DNA from: an uncultured Burkholderiales bacterium
GTDB taxonomy: Bacteria; Vulcanimicrobiota; Xenobia; Xenobiales; Xenobiaceae
Direction of reading: 5' to 3'
NCBI GenBank assembly: GCA_964595195.1
Contig: CAZQPM010000075.1
Coordinates: forward strand, 1 to 13,842
DNA length: 13,842 bases
Shown here: positions 1,393-9,681 of the stretch, in pieces
Layout: every line of letters begins with the position of its first letter
Position numbering within the stretch: position 1 is the stretch's first letter
Notes under the pieces: model-generated
Database searches by the model: none
The model's input: the letters and a program-made list of their open reading frames with translations, nothing else
Told to the model about the DNA's origin: nothing
Translations under genes and position numbers: made by a program

Positions 1393-3495
1393 TCAGCGGG
1401 ACTCGGCCACCGCCTTGGCCTGGCCCAGGGGCAGTTCGCCCAGACCCAGGCTGCCAGCCGCTTCCAGAAGCTTCTGCAGGCCCGCCTTCTCGGGCCCCTG
1501 ACTGCGGGCCACCAGGAGGCCCAGGGCCGCCGACAGGGTCAGGCTCTGCAGGTCCCCGGCCGAGAGAGCGGGATGGGAGAGCACCTCCTTGAGGTCCTGC
1601 GGGAGGCTGCGCCCCCCTTCCAGATACTCCGCCGCCAGGTTCCGGGCCACCTGGCTGCGCCCCACGAAGCCGTCCATGGCCTTGCCCAGCGAGACGGCGC
1701 TGAACATCTTGTCCATGAAGGCGCCGTCCCCGCCCACGATATCGATCCTGGCGTTCTTGAAGGCCTCGCCCATCACGTGGGCCTGGTGCTCGGCCACGCC
1801 CAGACGGGTCCTCAGTTCCTCCAAAGCGATCAGGCGCTCGTTCTCCAGGCGCAGGCGATACTCTTCATGACCGCGGCTGGCCTCGTTGAGGGCTGCCATG
1901 GCCTGGGCCTTCTCGGCCAGACCCTTGGCCTCGCCGGTCAGCCTCAGCTCGATGGCGTCGGCCTCGGCTCGAGCCCGTTCCCGCAGCACGGTGACATCGG
2001 CCAGGCCCAGTTTCTCCTGAGCCGGGGCCTTGGCTTCCTGCACCCGGACCTCGGCCATGCCCTGCTTCTCGAAGGCGGCCGCCTGGGCTTCCTGCACCCG
2101 GGCCTCGGCCAGGCCGGGGGCGGCGGTCTCGGCCTGCACGCCCTCGGCCAGGCGGATCTTGGCGGCAGCCGCGCGGTCGGCGGACTGCTGCTCGGCCTCG
2201 GCCAGGGTCAGCATCTCCTTGGAGCGCAGCCGCGAGACCGCCTCGGCGGCCTCGGCCCGACGGATCTCCTTGGCCGCCGCCTCCTCGGCCTCGGCCTGGG
2301 CGGCGATCACGGCGGCCTCCTTCAGGCGGCGGGCCTCCTCGACGACGCGCACGCCCTTGATGCGCTCCTCCTCCTCGGCCACGGTCTTCTCGACGGCCAC
2401 GCGCTCGCGGATGACCTCCTGGATGTTCTTGCGCTGCTCCTCGAGGTCGCGCTCCTTGGCGATGCGCTGCAACTCGACCTCGCGCTCGCGGGCCACGGCC
2501 TCCAGGTCCCTCTCGCGGGTCACCCGCTCCTGCTCGACGGCGATCACCCGCTCGCGGTTCTTCTCGGCCACCTGAACCTCGCGCATCTTGTTCTGTTCCT
2601 GCACGGACAGTTCTTCGTCGGTCTTGATCCGGGCGGTCTCGGAGCGCAGCCTCTCCTCGGCCTGCACCTTCTCGGTCTCGGCCTGCTCGCGGGCCCGCAC
2701 CGTGGCGATCTCGCGATCCTTGCGGGCCTCGGCGTCGGCCTTCTGCCGTTCCAGGTCGAAGATCAGGGCGGCGGCCTCCACGTCCTGTTTGGTGATCTGC
2801 TTCTTGCGGGTGTTCTCCCACTCGTTGGTGCGGATGTGCTCCTGGGCGGTCAACTCGGTGATCTTCTTGATGCCCTGGGCGTCCAGGATGTTCTCGGGGT
2901 CCAGGTTGGAGAGCGGCGTCTGCTCGAGGTGGTCGATGGCCGCGTCCTCCAGGTAGTAGCCGTTCAGGTGGCGACCGATGACCTCGATGATCGCGTCGCG
3001 GAACTTCTCGCGCTGGGTGTAGAGGTCCTCGAAGTCCATCTGCTTGCCCACCGTCTTGAGGGCCTCGGAGAACTTGGCGGCGAAGAGCCGGTCCAGGGTC
3101 TCGGGGTCGCTGGCCCGACGGCAGCCGATATTCTGGGCCACCTGGATCACGTCTTCCTTGGTCTTGTTGACGCGCACGAAGAAGGTGACCCGGATGTCCG
3201 CCCGGATGTTGTCCTTGCAGATCAGCCCCTCCTTGCCGCGGCGGTCGATATCCACCGTGCGCACCGACAGGTCCATGAACTCGGCCTTGTGCCAGATGGG
3301 GAAGACCCAGCCCCCGGTGAAGGTCACCTCGGGGTCCTTGCCGCGCTTGTTGACGATCAGGGCCTGACCCTGCTCGACCAGGATCAGCACGTTGCTGACC
3401 CAGCGGCGGAAGAGGGTCCAGACCAGGGGAATCCCCACCGCCAAGGCGACCAGGATGACCCCCCAGGTAGCGTAGGACTTCAGGGATTCAAGCAC
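1393..3495 (-). CDS. floT: Flotillin-family SPFH/band-7 membrane protein (FloT/YqiK-like), 700 aa, with an unusually long E/A/R-rich coiled-coil (flotillin EA-repeat) region.
   Basis: There is a GTG start at 3495 with a GGAGG 9 nt upstream on the - strand. The N-terminal transmembrane helix is YATWGVILVALAVGIPLVW. The SPFH core reads ALIVNKRGKDPEVTFTGGWVFPIWHKAEFMDLSVRTVDIDRRGKEGLICKDNIRADIRVTFFVRV. A long AEAR/VQEA-type coiled coil follows, then a C-terminal flotillin-like tail. The stop is at 1393-1395. Confidence 0.9.
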   Translation of the reverse strand: MLESLKSYATWGVILVALAVGIPLVWTLFRRWVSNVLILVEQGQALIVNKRGKDPEVTFTGGWVFPIWHKAEFMDLSVRTVDIDRRGKEGLICKDNIRADIRVTFFVRVNKTKEDVIQVAQNIGCRRASDPETLDRLFAAKFSEALKTVGKQMDFEDLYTQREKFRDAIIEVIGRHLNGYYLEDAAIDHLEQTPLSNLDPENILDAQGIKKITELTAQEHIRTNEWENTRKKQITKQDVEAAALIFDLERQKADAEARKDREIATVRAREQAETEKVQAEERLRSETARIKTDEELSVQEQNKMREVQVAEKNRERVIAVEQERVTRERDLEAVAREREVELQRIAKERDLEEQRKNIQEVIRERVAVEKTVAEEEERIKGVRVVEEARRLKEAAVIAAQAEAEEAAAKEIRRAEAAEAVSRLRSKEMLTLAEAEQQSADRAAAAKIRLAEGVQAETAAPGLAEARVQEAQAAAFEKQGMAEVRVQEAKAPAQEKLGLADVTVLRERARAEADAIELRLTGEAKGLAEKAQAMAALNEASRGHEEYRLRLENERLIALEELRTRLGVAEHQAHVMGEAFKNARIDIVGGDGAFMDKMFSAVSLGKAMDGFVGRSQVARNLAAEYLEGGRSLPQDLKEVLSHPALSAGDLQSLTLSAALGLLVARSQGPEKAGLQKLLEAAGSLGLGELPLGQAKAVAESR
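2030..2114. repeat. Imperfect 31-nt direct repeat with a 54-nt (18-codon) period inside the flotillin coiled-coil coding region.
   Basis: ttggcttcctgcacccggacctcggccatgc (2030-2060) and tgggcttcctgcacccgggcctcggccaggc (2084-2114) differ at 3 positions. On the - strand they encode GMAEVRVQEAK / GLAEARVQEAQ. The gcctcggcc motif recurs many times across 1900-2400. Confidence 0.8.
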
Positions 3496-3678
3496 GATTC
3501 GGGACCTCCAACCTCGGATTCCGGGACGGGACCTTCCGGACGAACCTGGTCGGGTCCTGGTCGGGGCCCCGATCCGTTGGAGATCGGGCCCTACGAGGGA
3601 ACGGGCCCCTCCAGCCGCGAACCAGGTCGGTCACCGCGACCCGGCCAGGGTACGATCGACCGATGGGGAGGCCCGGAC
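3496..3678. promoter_or_regulatory. Divergent intergenic region between the flotillin (-) and the purine permease (+). It contains a 7-bp-stem inverted repeat, CCCGATC-n7-GATCGGG, at 3568-3588.
   Basis: This is a 183-nt non-coding gap between the divergent starts at 3495 and 3679. The ribosome-binding sites are a GGAGG for the flotillin and GGGAGG at 3665-3670 for the permease. The palindrome is at 3568-3574 / 3582-3588. No convincing sigma70 -35/-10 pair could be assigned. Confidence 0.4.
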
Positions 3679-5016
3679 TTGCAGCAACTGATCGACCGCT
3701 ACTTTGGAGTCACCCAGGCAGGAAGCACGCTCAAGACCGAGCTCCTGGCCGGCCTGACCACCTTCCTGACCATGGCCTACATCCTCTTCCTGAACCCCCA
3801 GATCCTGGGGGACGCGGGCATGGATACCCGGGCCGTCATGCTGGCCACCGCGCTGGCCTCCGGCTTCGGTTGCCTGGCCATGGGCCTGGTGGCCCGGCTT
3901 CCCTTCGCGCTGGCGCCCGGGATGGGCGTCAACGCCTTCTTTGCCTACACCGTGGTGGCCCAGAAGCACATCCCCTGGCAGGTGGGCCTGGGCGCCGTCT
4001 TCCTGGACGGGCTGCTCTTCCTGATCCTCAGCATCCTGCCGATCCGGGAACGCATCATCCGGGAGATCCCCTACAGCCTGAAACTGGCCACCTCGGGGGC
4101 CATCGGTCTGTTCATCACCTTCATCGGCCTGCGCAGCGCGGGCATCGTGGCCGCGTCCGACGCCACCCTGGTGACCATGGGCCACCTGACCTCTCCCCCG
4201 GTGGCCCTGGCCGTGGGGGGCCTGCTGCTGATGGGCTGGCTTCTGGCCCGCGGGGTGAGGGGGGCCCTGCTGCTGGGGATCCTGGCCGTGACCGTGGTCG
4301 GCCTCTTCGTGCCGGGGGCCGACGGGCCCGTCACCCACCTTCCCCGGGGCGGGGCCCTGGTGGCCCTCCCCGACCTGGGGGTCCTGGGCCTGGTCATGGG
4401 CCAGATGGACGTGGTCGGGGCCCTCGAGATGGGCCTGGTGGTGATCGTCTTCACCTTCACCTTCGTCGACCTCTTCGACACCGCGGGCACCTTCGTCGGC
4501 CTGGGCACGCGCATGGGCTGGATCGACCGCGAACGCCAGAGCTTCCCGGGCCTGGGCCGGGGCCTCGTGGTGGACGCCGTGGCCACCATGTTCGGTGCCT
4601 TCGCCGGGACCAGCACCACCACCACCTACGTCGAGAGCGCCGCCGGCATCTCGGAAGGCGGGCGAACGGGCCTGACCTCGGTCACGGTAGGCCTCCTCTT
4701 CCTGGCCGCCATGGTCTTCGCCCCCCTGGCCGGGGTGGTGCCCGCCCAGGCCACGGCGCCGGCCCTGATCCTGGTGGGCTTCCTGATGCTCGAGCCGGTG
4801 ACCCGGTTGGACCTGATCGACGTCACCGAGGCCCTCCCCGCCTTCCTGACCCTGGTGATCATGCCGCTGACCTACAACATCGCCAACGGGCTGATCTGGG
4901 GCATCACCAGCTATGCCATCCTGAAGGCCCTGACCGGCCGCGGGCGCGAGGTCGGCGTCACCATGTGGGTGCTGGCGATCCTGTTCATCCTGGCCGTGAC
5001 GATGGACCTGCGCTAG
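3679..5016 (+). CDS. NCS2-family nucleobase permease of the AzgA/COG2252 subfamily (adenine/guanine/hypoxanthine permease; PbuG/PurP/GhxP-like), 445 aa.
   Basis: There is a TTG start at 3679 with a GGGAGG 8 nt upstream. The N-terminus MQQLIDRYFGVTQAGSTLKTELLAGLTTFLTMAYILFLNPQIL is the signature start of AzgA-like permeases (compare E. coli AdeP ...[39 protein letters not shown]). The protein has about 12 hydrophobic segments throughout. The stop is TAG at 5014-5016. The upstream part of the 1301-aa ORF 1111..5016 is antisense flotillin and is not part of this gene. Confidence 0.9.
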   Translation: MQQLIDRYFGVTQAGSTLKTELLAGLTTFLTMAYILFLNPQILGDAGMDTRAVMLATALASGFGCLAMGLVARLPFALAPGMGVNAFFAYTVVAQKHIPWQVGLGAVFLDGLLFLILSILPIRERIIREIPYSLKLATSGAIGLFITFIGLRSAGIVAASDATLVTMGHLTSPPVALAVGGLLLMGWLLARGVRGALLLGILAVTVVGLFVPGADGPVTHLPRGGALVALPDLGVLGLVMGQMDVVGALEMGLVVIVFTFTFVDLFDTAGTFVGLGTRMGWIDRERQSFPGLGRGLVVDAVATMFGAFAGTSTTTTYVESAAGISEGGRTGLTSVTVGLLFLAAMVFAPLAGVVPAQATAPALILVGFLMLEPVTRLDLIDVTEALPAFLTLVIMPLTYNIANGLIWGITSYAILKALTGRGREVGVTMWVLAILFILAVTMDLR

Positions 5017-5024
5017 CCGGGCCG

Positions 5025-6242
5025 ATGCAGGACCTCTACGTCGACCTGCACGTGCACATCGGCCGCAACGGCCAGGGCCGGCCCGTCAAGATCACCGCCA
5101 GCCGGCGCCTGACCTTCGCGGCCGTGATCCGCGAGTGCCGCGAGCGCAAGGGCCTGGACATGGTCGGCGTCATCGACTGCGCCTGCACCGGGGTCCTGCA
5201 GGATCTGCGGAAACTGATCGACCAGGGCGAGCTGCTGGAGTTGCCCGAGGGCGGCCTGCGCCACCGAGGGCGGGTCACCGTCGTGGCAGGTGCCGAGGTG
5301 GAGGCCGTCGAGGAGTCCGGGGGCGTCTCACACCACCTGTGCTACTTCCCGTACCTCCGCAACCTGGCCGAGTTCTCCCGGGTCATGTCCGGCTACATCA
5401 CGAACATGGAGCTCTCCTCCCAGCGCTGCGGCCTGCCGGCCCGCGAACTGGCGGCCGTGGTCCATTCCACCGGAGGTATCCTGGTCCCGGCCCACGCCTT
5501 CACTCCCCACAAGAGCGTCTACGGGAACGCGTGCGACCGCCTGGCGGACCTGCTGGGGTCAGGCTGGGAGCAGGTGTCGGCGCTGGAGTTGGGCCTGTCC
5601 GCCGACTCGGCGCTGGCCGACCATCTGCCCGAGCTGGCCGGGGTGACCCTCCTGTCCAACTCCGACGCCCACTCTCCGGAGAGGATCGGCCGGGAGTACA
5701 ACGTGATCCGCATGGAGGCCCCCAACTATCGCGAGCTGGTGCTGGCCCTGCACCGGACCGCGGGCCGCCGGGTGGTGGCCAACTACGGTCTGGACCCGCG
5801 CCTGGGCCGCTACCACCGCTCGTTCTGCACGGTCTGCGAGGCGCCCGTCACGGCCCCTCCCCCGGTGCTGGCCTGCCCCCGATGCGGCGCCGCCGACAAG
5901 CGCTTCGTGCGCGGCGTCCTGGACCGGGTCCGCTCGCTGGCCGGGCGCCAGGGCCCCGAATCGCCCGAGCACCGCCCCCCCTACCGCTACCAGGTGCCGC
6001 TGAGCTTCGTGCCCGGGCTGAGCCGGGCTGGCCTGAACCGCCTGATCGCGCGCTTCGGCAGCGAGATGGCGGTGCTGCATCAGGCCCGGCCAGAGGAGAT
6101 GGCCAGCCTGGTGGGCTGGGAGGTGGCGCGCTCGATCGGGGAAGCCCGCGAGGGCCGCCTCAACCTGGAGGCCGGGGGTGGCGGCCACTACGGCAGGGTC
6201 GCGGCCGGGCCTCACCGCGGGGAGCAGTTGGGCCTGTTCTGA
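5025..6242 (+). CDS. Endonuclease Q (EndoQ) family protein (TIGR00375 / PHP-like fold), 405 aa. It is a predicted endonuclease that nicks DNA 5' of deoxyuridine, hypoxanthine or abasic sites.
   Basis: The ATG at 5025 lies 8 nt after the permease stop. The protein aligns motif by motif with Pyrococcus furiosus EndoQ: DLHVHIG (Pfu DLHIHS), HHLCYFP (HHLLIFP), PAHAFTP (identical), LELGLSADSALAD (LELGLSADSDMAD), LSNSDAHSP (identical), GLDPRLGRYH (GLDPRLGKYH), a zinc finger CTVCE-x13-CPRCG (C..C...CPKCGG), DRPPY (identical) and GGGGHYG (GGGGKYG). The real start is internal to the 859-aa ORF 3663..6242. Confidence 0.85.
   Translation: MQDLYVDLHVHIGRNGQGRPVKITASRRLTFAAVIRECRERKGLDMVGVIDCACTGVLQDLRKLIDQGELLELPEGGLRHRGRVTVVAGAEVEAVEESGGVSHHLCYFPYLRNLAEFSRVMSGYITNMELSSQRCGLPARELAAVVHSTGGILVPAHAFTPHKSVYGNACDRLADLLGSGWEQVSALELGLSADSALADHLPELAGVTLLSNSDAHSPERIGREYNVIRMEAPNYRELVLALHRTAGRRVVANYGLDPRLGRYHRSFCTVCEAPVTAPPPVLACPRCGAADKRFVRGVLDRVRSLAGRQGPESPEHRPPYRYQVPLSFVPGLSRAGLNRLIARFGSEMAVLHQARPEEMASLVGWEVARSIGEAREGRLNLEAGGGGHYGRVAAGPHRGEQLGLF
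6225..6239 (+). other. C-terminal pentapeptide QLGLF of EndoQ, a candidate beta sliding-clamp (DnaN) binding motif.
   Basis: The last five codons before the TGA are cag ttg ggc ctg ttc. This fits the bacterial clamp-binding consensus QL[SD]LF / QLxLF, located at the extreme C-terminus as in Pol IV and Pol II. Archaeal EndoQ carries a C-terminal PIP box for PCNA at the equivalent position. Confidence 0.4.
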
Positions 6243-6267: not shown

Positions 6268-6684
6268 TCAGGACTCCAGGTAGCGCATCACGTCCGCGGG
6301 ATACTCGACGTGGTAGACCAGGGAAAGGGTGTGACCCGTCAGGGTGCTGGCCCGGGGCACCAGGTTCTGCTCTTCCAGAATCATCGAGAAGTAGCGGCGC
6401 AGCCGGCGCCCCAGGGCCGTGTTGGCGGTCTGCACGTGGTAGCGCACGGGCTTCAGGCCGTGGATGTGCAGGGTCACCTCCTGCTGGAGCCGCCCGATCG
6501 TGGCGTACATCTGGATCCGGGAGTTCGAGCGCTGGCGAGCGCACACCACGAAGCGGGGAGGCTGGGCCTCGCGGGCATTCAGGAATTCGACCAGGCGGTG
6601 CAGGATCTTCAGGAAGTGCTCCTCGGCACGAGTGAACCGGAAGAAGGTCTGCTCGAACCGGTGCATCTGCTCGGCCTCGAACAT
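6268..6684 (-). CDS. Hypothetical cytoplasmic protein, 138 aa, His-rich. It lies immediately downstream of the DtxR-family regulator (7-nt gap).
   Basis: The start was chosen at the internal ATG 6684 (MFEAEQMHRFEQTFFRF...) with a GGAGG 13 nt upstream. Before that Met, the ORF's in-frame N-terminal extension would overlap the DtxR tail. The stop is TGA at 6268-6270. The protein has no transmembrane segment. It has many His residues (MHRF, EEHF, ILHRL, TLHIHGL, RYHV, GHTL, YHVEY) and no recognisable family from sequence alone. Confidence 0.5.
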   Translation of the reverse strand: MFEAEQMHRFEQTFFRFTRAEEHFLKILHRLVEFLNAREAQPPRFVVCARQRSNSRIQMYATIGRLQQEVTLHIHGLKPVRYHVQTANTALGRRLRRYFSMILEEQNLVPRASTLTGHTLSLVYHVEYPADVMRYLES

Positions 6685-7447: not shown

Positions 7448-7663
7448 TTCAACCCTCAGGGCCGGGATTTCGCGTTGGTTCCCAAGTCTTCCTGGCCCTC
7501 CCGCGGGCGGAGATTTCCCGGTTGCCGCCGACCCCTCCGGGTGGAGGACTCTTCTTCCCCATGACAGAAACAAGGTGCCCAAGACGCCGGGCCAGCGGGT
7601 CTGCCCCCCAGGGAATCGGTGGGGTCCACCTCGCCCGGCGACGCAACGCGATCGGGAGACCCC
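7448..7663. promoter_or_regulatory. Divergent intergenic region between the DtxR-family regulator (-) and the metallophosphoesterase (+). It contains a repeated GGGATTTCGCG / GGAGATTTCCCGG element.
   Basis: This is a 216-nt non-coding gap. The GATTTC-containing elements sit at about 7464-7474 and 7505-7517. A short palindrome TTGG-ttc-CCAA lies at about 7476-7486. The phosphoesterase ribosome-binding site GGGAG is at 7654-7658. Confidence 0.35.
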
Positions 7664-8752
7664 ATGGACCCCCAGAGCCCCTCCAACAGCCCGTTCGGAC
7701 CGACGGAGAATCCAGCCAGCCCGGAGCCCGGCGAACAGGCCCCACTTCGGCGCAAGCTGCTGGCCATCGGCGATCTCCACGGCGACTACCACCGTCTGCT
7801 GCGCCATCTGCGCGAGCACCAGTTGCTGTTCGAGGATACCCTGGCCTGGAACCCCGAGCAGGACAACGTCGACCTGGTGCTGATCGGCGACTACGTCGAC
7901 TGGCGCGGCGAACCCCTGGAGGAGCCCACCGACCAGTCACCGGAACTGCCCGAAGCCGGGCCCCGGCGAATCCTGGAACTGCTGATGCACCTGGACGAAG
8001 AACTGGAGAAGCTGCGAGGCGCCATCCCGGGCTTCGCCAGCCAGCTCTACGCGCTCCTGGGCAACCACGACGAGATGATGCTGGATGCCGTCGGGGTCTT
8101 CGACTTCCTGCACGTCGAACAGCTCGAGGAGGTCCTGGGCCGGGCCCGCAACTTCGCCGCGGTGAAGCGTCACATGGCCGAAAGGGGCCTGAACGCCGAC
8201 CAACTCGAACGCGTCATGCGCTTCATGAACTGGTACGTCCAGGGAGGCGAGCAGACGGCCAAGGGATTCGGCGGTCTGGTGGCCTGGAAGGAGGCCATGG
8301 ATCGCGACCTGGGCCGCTTCCTGCGGACCCGCCTGCGGCTGGGAGTGGTGGTCGACCACCGCCTCTTCGCCCACACGATCCCGGACCAGCGCAAGTTCTG
8401 GAGACCGCTGGAGGAGATCGTCGCACTCCCCGACAACGAGTTCCGCTCGGCTCGCGAGTCCTTCCTGTGGAGCCGGAAGATCTGGGGCTTCGACTACTAT
8501 ACAGGGATGCGCACGAATCCCTTCTCGGACAAGGAGCTCGACGAGATGCTGGGACGCCTGGGCGTTCGCGGCCTGGTGGTCGGGCACACGCCTCTCACCC
8601 GTGGCCAGGAGTACGTGGTGGCCTACGGAGGCAAGGTGATCAACCTGGACGTGCACGGCACGCCGGGGGCCGCGGCCCTGGTCGAGGAGTACGTGCCCTC
8701 CGAGAACAGCTCCCGGGCCCCCCTGCGGATCCAGGTCCAGGGTTCGAAGTGA
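7664..8752 (+). CDS. Calcineurin-like metallophosphoesterase (PPP/ApaH-like Ser/Thr phosphatase or bis-nucleoside tetraphosphatase-like), 362 aa, with a Ser/Pro-rich N-terminal tail.
   Basis: The ATG at 7664 has a GGGAG 5 nt upstream. The alternative GTG at 7619 lacks a ribosome-binding site. The motifs are GDLHGDY (GDxHG), GDYVDWRG (GDxVDRG-like), GNHDE (GNH[DE]), VVGHTP (GH) and DVHGT. The stop TGA at 8750-8752 overlaps the next start. Confidence 0.85.
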
Positions 8753-9681
8753 AGGAGATCCAGGAACTCAGCCAGCGGGTGCTGGCCAACGTCGAGAAGG
8801 TCATCCTGGGCAAGCACGAGGAGATCCGCTTGGTCCTGGTCGCCCTGCTGTGCGAGGGCCACGTGCTGCTGGAGGATGTCCCGGGAGTCGGCAAGACCAT
8901 GCTGAGCCGCGCCGTGGCCCGTTCGCTGGGCTGCTCCTTCGCCCGGCTCCAGTGCACCCCGGATCTCCTGCCGTCAGACCTCCTGGGTGTGACCATCTAC
9001 AACCAGAAGTCGATGGACTTCGAGTTCCGCCCCGGGCCGGTCTTCCACCAGGTGCTGCTGGCCGACGAGATCAACCGGGCCACGCCCAAGACCCAGTCGG
9101 CCCTCCTGGAAAGCATGGACGAGCGTCAGGTGACCACCGAAGGGGTGGCCCGCCCCCTGCCCCGCCCCTTCCTGGTGATGGCCACCCAGAATCCCATCGA
9201 GTACGAGGGCACCTTCCCCCTGCCCGAGGCCCAGTTGGACCGCTTCCTGCTGAGGATCCGCCTGGGCTATCCCTCGTTCGAGGCCGAGACCGAGATGCTG
9301 GTCTCCCAGCAGCACCACCATCCGATCGAGGACCTGGACCAGGTCGTCGCCGGCCCCGAACTGCAGCGCATGCAGGCCATGGTCCACGAGGTGGAGGTGG
9401 AGGAATCCCTGCGCCACTACATCGTGCGCCTGGTCCAGGCGACCCGGGAGGCCGACCGGCTCTTCCTGGGCGCCAGCCCCCGGGGCAGCCAGGCCCTGTT
9501 CCGGGCGGCCCAGGCCCTGGCCGCCATGGAGGGTCGCCGCTACGTGCTGCCCGACGACATCAAGGCCCTGGCGATCCCGGCGCTTTCCCACCGGATGATC
9601 TCCCGGACGGATGGGGTCGGCGGCCGGGCCGCCGTCGAGGTCCTGCAGGGCCTGCTGGACCGACTGCCGGTCCCGGTCTAG
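8749..9681 (+). CDS. moxR: MoxR-family AAA+ ATPase (AAA_3 / COG0714), 310 aa.
   Basis: The GTG start at 8749 overlaps the upstream stop (GTGA). The N-terminus [61 protein letters not shown] is the typical MoxR start. Walker A is PGVGKT, Walker B is [10 protein letters not shown] and sensor 1 is ATQNP. The length is typical for MoxR. The upstream part of ORF 7522..9681 is in another frame over the phosphoesterase and is an artefact. Confidence 0.9.

Follow-up and report, generated by a model that had tools for sequence, protein, structure and literature searches.

Endonuclease Q and its functional counterparts

Endonuclease Q (EndoQ) is a DNA-repair family whose members nick DNA beside deaminated or missing bases, the bond cut being the one directly 5' of dU, dI, dX or an AP site. 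A member from Bacillus pumilus was reportedly characterised by Shiraishi et al. in 2017, and endonuclease V, another enzyme acting at deaminated bases, cleaves the second bond 3' of the lesion. In the EndoQ of the hyperthermophilic archaeon Pyrococcus furiosus (PfuEndoQ, PF1551; PDB 5ZB8, 7K30-7K33) the metal ligands H8, H10, E76, H84, H139 and D193 lie in a PHP domain; the D193N substitution and mutation of His195 each abolish activity, R114 is essential by mutagenesis, and G169A and L170A impair the cleavage of dI (PMC5961232). Archaeal EndoQ also has a C-terminal PIP box that binds PCNA, and cleavage is thereby stimulated (PMC4858679). In bacteria EndoQ has been described as rare, and the enzymes of B. 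pumilus and B. subtilis are reported to be active (PMC5961232, PMC8438529). Endonuclease V and the uridine-endonuclease ExoIII (Mth212) likewise nick at deaminated bases without a glycosylase step (PMC4357722), but have other folds and zero sequence similarity to EndoQ. The functional analog EndoMS/NucS is a repair endonuclease of both archaea and bacteria, with a PCNA motif in the former and a C-terminal beta-clamp-binding motif needed in vivo in the latter, and so provides a precedent for bacterial EndoQ (PMC6159521); it differs, however, in having an unrelated RecB-like nuclease fold and in making double-strand cuts at mismatches.

An EndoQ-family gene in an uncultivated bacterium

The window, i.e., the whole 13,842-nucleotide stretch of DNA analysed here, comes from an uncultivated, high-GC bacterium that, judging from its nearest relatives, stands near the UBP9 MAGs and Eremiobacterota/Vulcanimicrobiota, and a preliminary description had placed an EndoQ homolog at 5025-6242. 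This was borne out, as sequence, fold, catalytic residues, base pocket and zinc finger all agree in supporting the product as an EndoQ-family protein. From the ATG at 5025, 8 nt downstream of the TAG of a permease gene, the frame runs without interruption to the stop codon and translates to 405 residues, and the homologs share this start point (MKDFYVDLHVH...). The open frame in which the gene lies (3663-6242) is longer than the gene because DNA of 69% GC typically gives long open frames. The features of the gene and its product are:

5025-6242, + strand: endoQ coding sequence, 405 codons, stop codon at 6240-6242
5025-5795, + strand: N-terminal PHP-type catalytic domain (residues 1-257), with metal and catalytic residues H9, H11, E91, H103, H157, D214 and H216
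5043-5057, + strand: DLHVH (residues 7-11; D7, H9, H11), first two metal ligands, placed by MAFFT alignment
Residues 103-109: HHLCYFP
Residues 155-161: PAHAFTP
Residues 187-195: LELGLSADS
5592-5600, + strand: G190-L191-S192, predicted deaminated-base pocket, aligned with Pfu G169-L170-S171 and invariant in 24 homologs
Residues 210-218: LSNSDAHSP
5664-5672, + strand: D214-A-H216, catalytic Asp and His, aligned with Pfu D193 and H195
Residues 255-264: GLDPRLGRYH
5796-5996, + strand: zinc-binding domain (residues 258-324), with a C4 finger (C268, C271, C284, C287) at 5826-5885
Residues 268-288: CTVC...CPRCG
Residues 316-320: HRPPY (DRPPY in the Pyrococcus version)
5997-6209, + strand: C-terminal helical domain (residues 325-395), from full-length superposition on PfuEndoQ
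6006-6059, + strand: helix-hairpin-helix-like FVPGLSRAGLNRLIARFG, inside the C-terminal helical domain
6174-6194, + strand: GGGGHYG loop (residues 384-390), GGGGxYG being invariant in 24 homologs
6210-6239, + strand: tail PHRGEQLGLF, disordered (pLDDT <50 for residues 396-405)
6225-6239, + strand: QLGLF, candidate beta-clamp-binding motif, from the sequence motif

Among solved structures PfuEndoQ was the only significant relative by sequence, with an E-value of 3.5e-48 in a phmmer search of the PDB sequences (5zb8) and 2.3e-65 for a profile of 24 homologs. The AlphaFold model of the 405-residue protein (pLDDT 87.9, pTM 0.88) superposed on the Pfu enzyme as had been anticipated, Foldseek matching it to 5zb8 and 7k30 over its full length (TM 0.81-0.83, ~410 columns, 33% identity), and the two proteins share a PHP barrel, a C4 zinc finger and a helical domain. 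The catalytic and zinc-finger blocks that had been expected to align with PF1551 did so by MAFFT (D214 and H216 by phmmer as well): H9, H11, E91, H103, H157, D214 and H216, all seven invariant in the 24 homologs, align with Pfu H8, H10, E76, H84, H139, D193 and H195, and C268, C271, C284 and C287, also invariant in the homologs, with Pfu C249, C252, C268 and C271. Metal ligands, catalytic Asp and His, the G-L-S residues, zinc cysteines and the GGGGxYG loop are thus identical between the two enzymes. The residues R262 and Y263 align with the DNA-contacting K243 and Y244 of Pfu, and the equivalents of DNA contacts that are kept comprise R220, R262, Y263 and Y389.

The bacterial branch differs from PfuEndoQ in having an 8-residue insertion directly after DLHVH (GRNGQGRPVKITAS; the PVKITAS insertion), a second insertion around EGGL (G76, G77), and a deletion that makes the first helices of the C-terminal domain a compact hairpin resembling a helix-hairpin-helix (HhH). 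Due to the first insertion, local HMMER alignments (single sequence, profile, or the N-terminal 54 residues) miss DLHxH, which was instead placed by MAFFT together with PIP-tailed (archaeal-type) homologs and a Pfu sequence rebuilt from the phmmer alignment, with its first 16 residues supplied separately. D-L-H/Q-x-H/Q stands at the N-terminus in eight of the nine PIP-tailed homologs, the ninth (P0217) being without its N-terminus. Local Foldseek matches to the hairpin were to the (HhH)2 of UvrC and XPF (~50 residues, rmsd 1.5) with weak E-values; a Pfam search for HhH with the isolated C-terminal domain gave no match.

Differences from PfuEndoQ and the substrate range

The preliminary description held that essentially every block of PfuEndoQ is conserved. 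The motifs it listed are all present, with the single correction of HRPPY for DRPPY; however, R114 and W144 of Pfu are missing branch-wide. No Arg aligns with R114, the site instead having an invariant L-S-S-Q133 followed by a non-conserved R134, and L-S-S/T-Q is invariant here across the bacterial branch. The proposed wedge residue W144 is replaced by His162, which is at least 90% conserved in the clade, with Tyr or Phe in other bacterial members, and the DNA-contacting R251 and K276 are both Val. As these four Pfu residues are replaced, the specificity or kinetics of the protein could differ from those of the Pfu enzyme. We compared it with Bacillus-type EndoQ by means of the proteins of B. 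fonticola (WP_170007544.1) and Salsuginibacillus halophilus (WP_106589425.1), which are 35-36% identical to it (E-values 8e-81 and 7e-72); they belong to the same bacterial branch, are of similar length, and share the PVKITAS insertion, L-S-T-Q at the R114 site and a residue other than Trp at the W144 position. The bacterial-branch peculiarities were found in the Bacillus-type 'endonuclease Q family protein' P0277 (35% identity, 8e-81).

The non-conservation of the essential R114, the wedge W144 and the contacts R251 and K276 could mean that the protein, though of the EndoQ family, has a different range of substrates, e.g., that it acts mainly as an AP endonuclease, on one deaminated base or on some other lesion. 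The EndoQ homolog of B. subtilis is presumably YqxK. A pull-down with DNA containing abasic sites enriched this protein (PMC10220248), and Pfu pocket mutants that lose dI cleavage retain AP cleavage (PMC5961232), base specificity therefore being separable from catalysis. We nonetheless consider a shifted range improbable, based on the fact that the G-L-S pocket residues are invariant, that the Bacillus-type proteins have the same replacements, and that the characterised member of that type, from B. pumilus, reportedly cleaves DNA at AP sites as well as at uracil and hypoxanthine (PMC8438529).

A match to TIGR00375 (NCBIfam, hypothetical equivalog) had been expected and was found with an E-value of 2e-74, but its score of 251.3 bits does not reach the curated cut-off of 326.6 bits. 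Scores were 180.8 bits for the Bacillus 'endonuclease Q family protein', also below the cut-off, 237.7 for a Bacillota MAG protein and 222 for an Eremiobacterota protein. Since even a PIP-tailed (archaeal-type) homolog scores only 319, the cut-off appears to be set too high for that sequence as well, with the bacterial members falling well under it. PF27218 is listed for some homologs. Pfam yielded for our protein a weak PHP_C match alone (19.3 bits, below the 21.3 cut-off) and NCBIfam a weak match to the CehA/McbA metallohydrolases, and PHP esterases made up the second tier of structural matches; these affinities would also suit a generic phosphoesterase of the PHP family, e.g., a phosphatase acting on nucleotides or oligonucleotides and not a DNA-lesion endonuclease. 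The esterase matches, however, are confined to the N-terminal barrel with a TM of ~0.35, while the protein continues beyond a generic PHP barrel into the zinc-finger and helical domains and the GGGGxYG loop specific to EndoQ and has a full-length TM of 0.82 to EndoQ. This three-domain match leaves a generic phosphoesterase highly improbable, and effectively refutes it.

The gene at 5025-6242 very probably encodes a functional bacterial endonuclease Q, for which we infer the substrates, cleavage position, downstream steps and clamp binding; the present analysis itself shows that the protein has the fold of this family and belongs to it, that its catalytic, pocket and zinc residues are conserved, that the gene is under purifying selection, and that the tail motif is present and conserved at clade level. 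The enzyme would be a metal-dependent phosphodiesterase of the PHP type, holding duplex DNA by its C4 zinc-finger and helical (HhH-like) C-terminal domains and flipping a deaminated base (uracil or hypoxanthine, probably also xanthine) or an abasic sugar into the G190-L191-S192 pocket. Incision of the phosphodiester bond directly 5' of the lesion would leave a 3'-OH and a 5'-phosphate, and a Pol I-type activity, working by strand displacement or with 5'-3' exonuclease synthesis, would then finish the repair together with ligase.

Distribution and gene neighborhood

The rarity of EndoQ in bacteria, on which the preliminary description relied, agrees with the literature but not with public data: relatives are present in at least 536 species-representative genomes, and matches were found to over 2,400 protein clusters. 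At 50% identity there are about 150 clusters. MAGs of Eremiobacterota, Armatimonadota, Atribacterota and many Bacillota carry EndoQ; the published picture of its distribution is thus outdated, the spread being wider and regardless of GC. The GC content of the loci bearing EndoQ varies between 25 and 74% (median 37%), and the proposed rationale linking the enzyme to the cytosine deamination of a high-GC genome was rejected on this ground. The claim of novelty was likewise overstated, as NCBI already applies the name 'endonuclease Q family protein' to close relatives from Eremiobacterota/Vulcanimicrobiota, UBP9 and Armatimonadota. The 'endonuclease Q family' and 'TIGR00375 family' proteins of these MAGs are orthologs of the same length (51-90% identity), mostly with a QLxLF-type tail, and show no essential difference from the protein described here. 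The latter is an uncharacterised ortholog in a lineage where annotation pipelines already recognise the family, the putative clamp-binding tail being its only extra feature; as one more such ortholog, the single protein is of small significance.

Housekeeping genes, not a repair operon, surround endoQ; no repair genes were found near it, and no conserved neighborhood was found outside its closest UBP9 relatives. The seven genes downstream are syntenic in UBP9 MAGs, whereas the upstream neighbor is an NCS2 purine-type permease here and an ArsR/ACR3-like pair in the closest relatives. A link to hypoxanthine via this permease was rejected because the permease is not conserved even in these relatives. 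A different arrangement, with a NUDIX hydrolase gene on one side of the gene and xerD or spoIIM on the other, occurs at many loci of Bacillota, Clostridia and Atribacterota but not here. Rfam and tRNA scans gave no matches.

Purifying selection acts on endoQ, the dN/dS against three UBP9 orthologs being 0.20-0.23. The lack of a recognisable Shine-Dalgarno sequence, promoter or terminator near the gene and the varying upstream neighbor might point to a copy that is decaying or not expressed, or to one acquired horizontally of late that has no role here. This reading is still less credible than a generic phosphoesterase, given the intact frame with all catalytic residues retained, the dN/dS of ~0.2, a GC content the same as that of the surroundings, the synteny of the seven downstream genes with UBP9 relatives, and an identity that declines by lineage as vertical descent predicts (UBP9, 80-81%; Eremiobacterota/Vulcanimicrobiota, 52-72%; Armatimonadota, 51-55%).

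The C-terminal tail and the sliding clamp

Like PfuEndoQ, the protein ends in a disordered tail with a short clamp-interaction motif, which is the PIP box QRTLLQYI in the archaeal enzyme and the candidate beta-clamp motif QLGLF here. Conservation is at least 90% at Q401 and L402, the linker being variable. The strict clamp motif was found in 77 of 217 full-length homolog tails, almost all of them in proteins more closely related to the query, as compared with 0.4% of 22-residue windows in the protein bodies. By lineage, the motif is present in Eremiobacterota and UBP9 and in most Armatimonadota, and absent from the Clostridia and Bacillus types, which end directly after GGGGxYGK without a QLxLF tail. 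The tail thus divides bacterial EndoQ into a tailed and a tailless group. Beta-clamp motifs in bacterial EndoQ homologs have been remarked on before (PMC4858679); our literature search found no test of one.

Judging from the 5-residue motif, the EQLGLF tail probably hooks the enzyme onto the replication sliding clamp, most likely by docking in the hydrophobic cleft of the beta clamp (DnaN). Where DNA has just been replicated and carries loaded clamps, such docking would bring in the nuclease or stimulate it, and the contact would be the bacterial counterpart of that between the archaeal PIP box and PCNA. We lean, by a little, towards a broader proposal drawn from the distribution of the motif, namely that the EndoQ of Eremiobacterota, UBP9 and Armatimonadota may be coupled to the replisome via QLxLF, with incision that is clamp-stimulated and replication-associated, a partnership that bacteria would have invented anew and independently of the archaeal one between EndoQ and PCNA, while the Bacillus/Clostridia branch would be clamp-free. 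The split between tailed and tailless proteins makes a testable hypothesis of the coupling of glycosylase-independent deaminated-base repair to replication in bacteria.

The Bacillus/Clostridia-type proteins apparently manage without a clamp motif. The tails themselves also vary within the tailed lineages: several of those in Armatimonadota deviate (e.g., QLDLPGL and QITLPGIS), and the UBP9 copies have 9 extra residues beyond the motif.

Family Assignment of the Window Protein

The protein discussed here is the product of the following gene:

5025–6242, + strand: endoQ, uninterrupted between its start codon (ATG, 5025) and its stop codon (6240–6242), 405 residues in translation

A single-sequence search of this protein against the sequences of the whole PDB gave significant matches only to entries of Pyrococcus furiosus endonuclease Q (PfuEndoQ; 3.5e-48 for 5zb8, and 1.7e-47 for 7k30 and 7k31), and the match improved to 2.3e-65 with a profile of 24 homologs. 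All nine EndoQ sequence blocks named in the preliminary description were located at the expected places, although the one given there as DRPPY, which is the Pyrococcus version, reads HRPPY here. The suggested check against the NCBIfam profile TIGR00375 gave an end-to-end match (2e-74), but the score of 251.3 bits lay below the curated cut-off of 326.6. Bacterial homologs likewise scored below this cut-off: 180.8 for a protein of Bacillus fonticola annotated by NCBI as "endonuclease Q family protein", 237.7 for one from a Bacillota MAG and 222 for one from Eremiobacterota, while a homolog with a PIP-box-type tail, presumably archaeal, scored 319; the cut-off thus shuts out the bacterial branch generally, and the low score is nothing specific against the window protein. 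Pfam, in the copy searched, has no dedicated model and gave the window protein only a below-threshold PHP_C match. As the PfuEndoQ sequence match, full-length fold, active site, pocket and zinc finger agree, the assignment to the EndoQ family is sound.

Conservation of Functional Residues

Residues were mapped in a MAFFT alignment of nine archaeal-type homologs ending in a PCNA-binding PIP box, five bacterial homologs and PfuEndoQ, whose residues 1–16 (so H8 and H10) were added to the sequence rebuilt from the PDB match.

PfuEndoQ residues, with roles reported by Miyazono et al. (PMC5961232) where named, and their window protein equivalents
Two-metal site: H8, H10, E76, H84, H139, D193; H9, H11, E91, H103, H157, D214; conserved
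Further essential: H195; H216; conserved
Further essential: R114; invariant L-S-S-Q133, then variable R134; not conserved
Base pocket: G169, L170; G190, L191; conserved, as is S171 (S192)
Putative wedge: W144; H162; not conserved
DNA contact: R201, K243, Y244; R220, R262, Y263; conserved, with K243 replaced by R
DNA contact: R251, K276; Val, Val; not conserved
Grouped with the DNA contacts: Y377; Y389; conserved
C4 zinc site: C249, C252, C268, C271; C268, C271, C284, C287; conserved

Across 24 bacterial homologs the equivalents of the catalytic and metal residues, the G-L-S pocket and the zinc cysteines were invariant, and Y263 was the only DNA-contact equivalent that was so. The non-conserved positions mark the whole bacterial branch, Bacillus-type proteins included (LSTQH, AHAFTPF), and since the B. 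pumilus and B. subtilis enzymes reportedly act at uracil, hypoxanthine and AP sites (PMC5961232, PMC8438529), the substitutions appear compatible with activity, a comparison made via Bacillus-type proteins rather than the B. pumilus sequence itself. That we are dealing with an EndoQ family member of altered substrate range is the alternative that survives best, and we regard it as unlikely.

Predicted Structure, Gene Model and Selection

An AlphaFold2 model built from a 24-sequence alignment had a mean pLDDT of 87.9 and a pTM of 0.88, with only residues 396–405 below a pLDDT of 50. In a Foldseek search against the PDB, PfuEndoQ ranked first (chains A–C of 5zb8, and 7k30, its complex with dU-DNA), and the superposition suggested in the preliminary description gave a TM-score of 0.81–0.83 (rmsd ~3 Å, ~410 aligned columns, 33% identity). 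A second class of matches, to PHP phosphoesterases and the Pol III alpha PHP domain, covered the N-terminal barrel only (TM ~0.35), so that the model points to a complete EndoQ architecture and not a PHP domain alone. A generic PHP esterase, which would share just this barrel, is accordingly most improbable given the full-length EndoQ match.

Within the C-terminal domain, FVPGLSRAGLNRLIARFG (EndoQ residues 328–345; window 6006–6059, + strand) looks like a helix-hairpin-helix; archaeal EndoQ enzymes differ in having an insertion at this position. Local Foldseek matches of the domain were to the (HhH)2 of UvrC, XPF and FAAP24 (~50 residues, rmsd 1.5, weak E-values), and a single-sequence Pfam scan gave no match at the candidate hairpin.

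The endoQ ATG lies 8 nt 3' of the TAG of the upstream gene, and orthologs begin at the same residue; we rejected a mechanical ORF of 3663..6242 as the true extent, such over-extension being usual in GC-rich DNA (the 13,842 bases of the window are 69% GC). Nei-Gojobori comparison with three UBP9-type MAG orthologs (80–81% amino acid identity, equal length, no gaps) gave a dN of 0.13 and a dS of 0.57–0.70. The ratio of 0.20–0.23 indicates purifying selection, and the GC content is continuous with that of the flanking DNA, both of which argue against a dead or foreign gene, the least probable alternative of all.

C-Terminal Tail and a Possible Link to the Sliding Clamp

The window protein runs 13 residues past the invariant GGGGxYG(K/R)V and finishes in EQLGLF. 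This end fits the bacterial beta-clamp-binding pentapeptide consensus reportedly described by Dalrymple et al. in 2001, QL[S/D]LF. Q401 and L402 were ≥90% conserved in 24 homologs, the preceding linker varied in sequence and length, and the tail was predicted to be disordered by AlphaFold2 pLDDT, a combination that fits a short linear motif. The strict motif occurred in 77 of 217 full-length homolog tails, essentially all from closer relatives of the query, against a background of 14 in 3,680 windows (0.4%) in protein bodies.

C-terminal tails among EndoQ homologs
UBP9, Eremiobacterota/Vulcanimicrobiota, most Armatimonadota, several unclassified MAGs: tail with motif
Atribacterota: divergent tails (…LQLNF, …SGSLF)
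Clostridia/Clostridium and Bacillus-type: protein ends directly after the GGGG loop
PIP-tailed (archaeal-type): PIP boxes (…QKSLFDF, …QRSLFEFI)

The archaeal PIP box binds PCNA with a KD of 55 nM, and PCNA stimulates cleavage (Shiraishi et al. 2016, PMC4858679); the same authors remarked on beta-clamp motifs in bacterial homologs without testing them, and we found no later test in the literature. Bacterial EndoMS/NucS offers a precedent as a clamp-dependent repair nuclease that archaea also have (PMC6159521). Based on the tail conservation, the archaeal PIP box and this precedent, we lean toward the view that the tail most likely serves to tether EndoQ to the clamp, as read from a short motif. 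The division of bacterial EndoQs into those with and without the motif is of modest interest and lends itself to testing.

With fold, active site, pocket, zinc finger, tail motif and purifying selection shown for the window protein itself, homology suggests how it may act. [quoted passage not shown] A Pol I-type 5' nuclease would then remove the lesion-bearing 5' end, followed by resynthesis and ligation, and the beta clamp may recruit or stimulate EndoQ.

Distribution and Genomic Context

EndoQ had been put forward as rare among bacteria, and the literature agrees, placing it in "a limited number of bacteria", e.g., Bacillus and Desulfovibrio (PMC5961232, PMC8438529, PMC4357722); public sequence data, however, show a wider spread. 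At least 536 loci were confirmed across 185,579 scanned species genomes, an exhaustive HMMER search of 1.84 billion representatives at 50% identity returned 149 at E ≤1e-30 and 931 at ≤1e-10, and, of 8,000 candidates from a word-indexed search, 2,468 clusters reached E ≤1e-3. The best 80 loci ranged from 25% to 74% GC (median 37%), leaving the proposal that EndoQ answers a high-GC deamination burden without comparative support. With both arguments gone, the earlier grounds for special interest do not stand. An identical protein is already in NCBI, and NCBI/JGI already name Eremiobacterota and Armatimonadota relatives "endonuclease Q family protein" or "TIGR00375 family protein"; the window protein is an ordinary ortholog, from an uncultivated lineage, within a family both known and already annotated. 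Its nearest relatives by identity are in UBP9 MAGs (80–81%), Vulcanimicrobiota/Eremiobacterota (52–72%), and Armatimonadota and others (~50–58%).

Genes flanking endoQ include:

3664–5016, + strand: NCS2/xanthine-uracil family permease gene, directly 5' of endoQ (8-nt gap)
6268–6684, − strand: 138-residue ORF, convergent with endoQ
7619–8752, + strand: calcineurin-like metallophosphoesterase gene
8743–9681, + strand: MoxR-type AAA ATPase gene, with a small overlap with the metallophosphoesterase gene

Seven genes 3' of endoQ (the 138-residue ORF, a DtxR-type regulator, the metallophosphoesterase, the MoxR ATPase, a HAD hydrolase, GltX and Dus) are syntenic with UBP9 loci L001 and L003 at 67–89% identity, and the metallophosphoesterase-MoxR pair is kept in UBP9 relatives. 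While the 138-residue ORF had no Pfam or NCBIfam match, it is conserved at the corresponding place in all three UBP9 loci L001–L003 (67–70% identity) and is thus a real gene. Upstream, an ArsR-like regulator and an ACR3-like transporter replace the permease in L003 (6280–7708), placing a synteny breakpoint at the 5' end of endoQ; a functional link between permease and EndoQ is unsupported, the permease being absent there. No repair gene occurs anywhere in the window, and scans around endoQ for promoters, terminators, Rfam families and tRNAs gave no hits. In 27 of the 80 loci a NUDIX hydrolase gene lies immediately 5' of endoQ on the same strand, and XerD-like (21), SpoIIM (16) and DnaG (15) genes recur on its 3' side; these neighbors, within 4 kb of endoQ in loci L013–L080 (Bacillota, Clostridia, Atribacterota and others), are all absent from the window.

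Elsewhere in the window, a 700-residue protein (1393–3495, − strand) has a very high content of Glu, Lys and Ala and is probably coiled-coil; it had no Pfam match, and NCBIfam gave only a weak one, to flotillin FloT (27.6 bits, where the cut-off is 700). This protein accounts for the strongly negative AT skew at 1500–3000.
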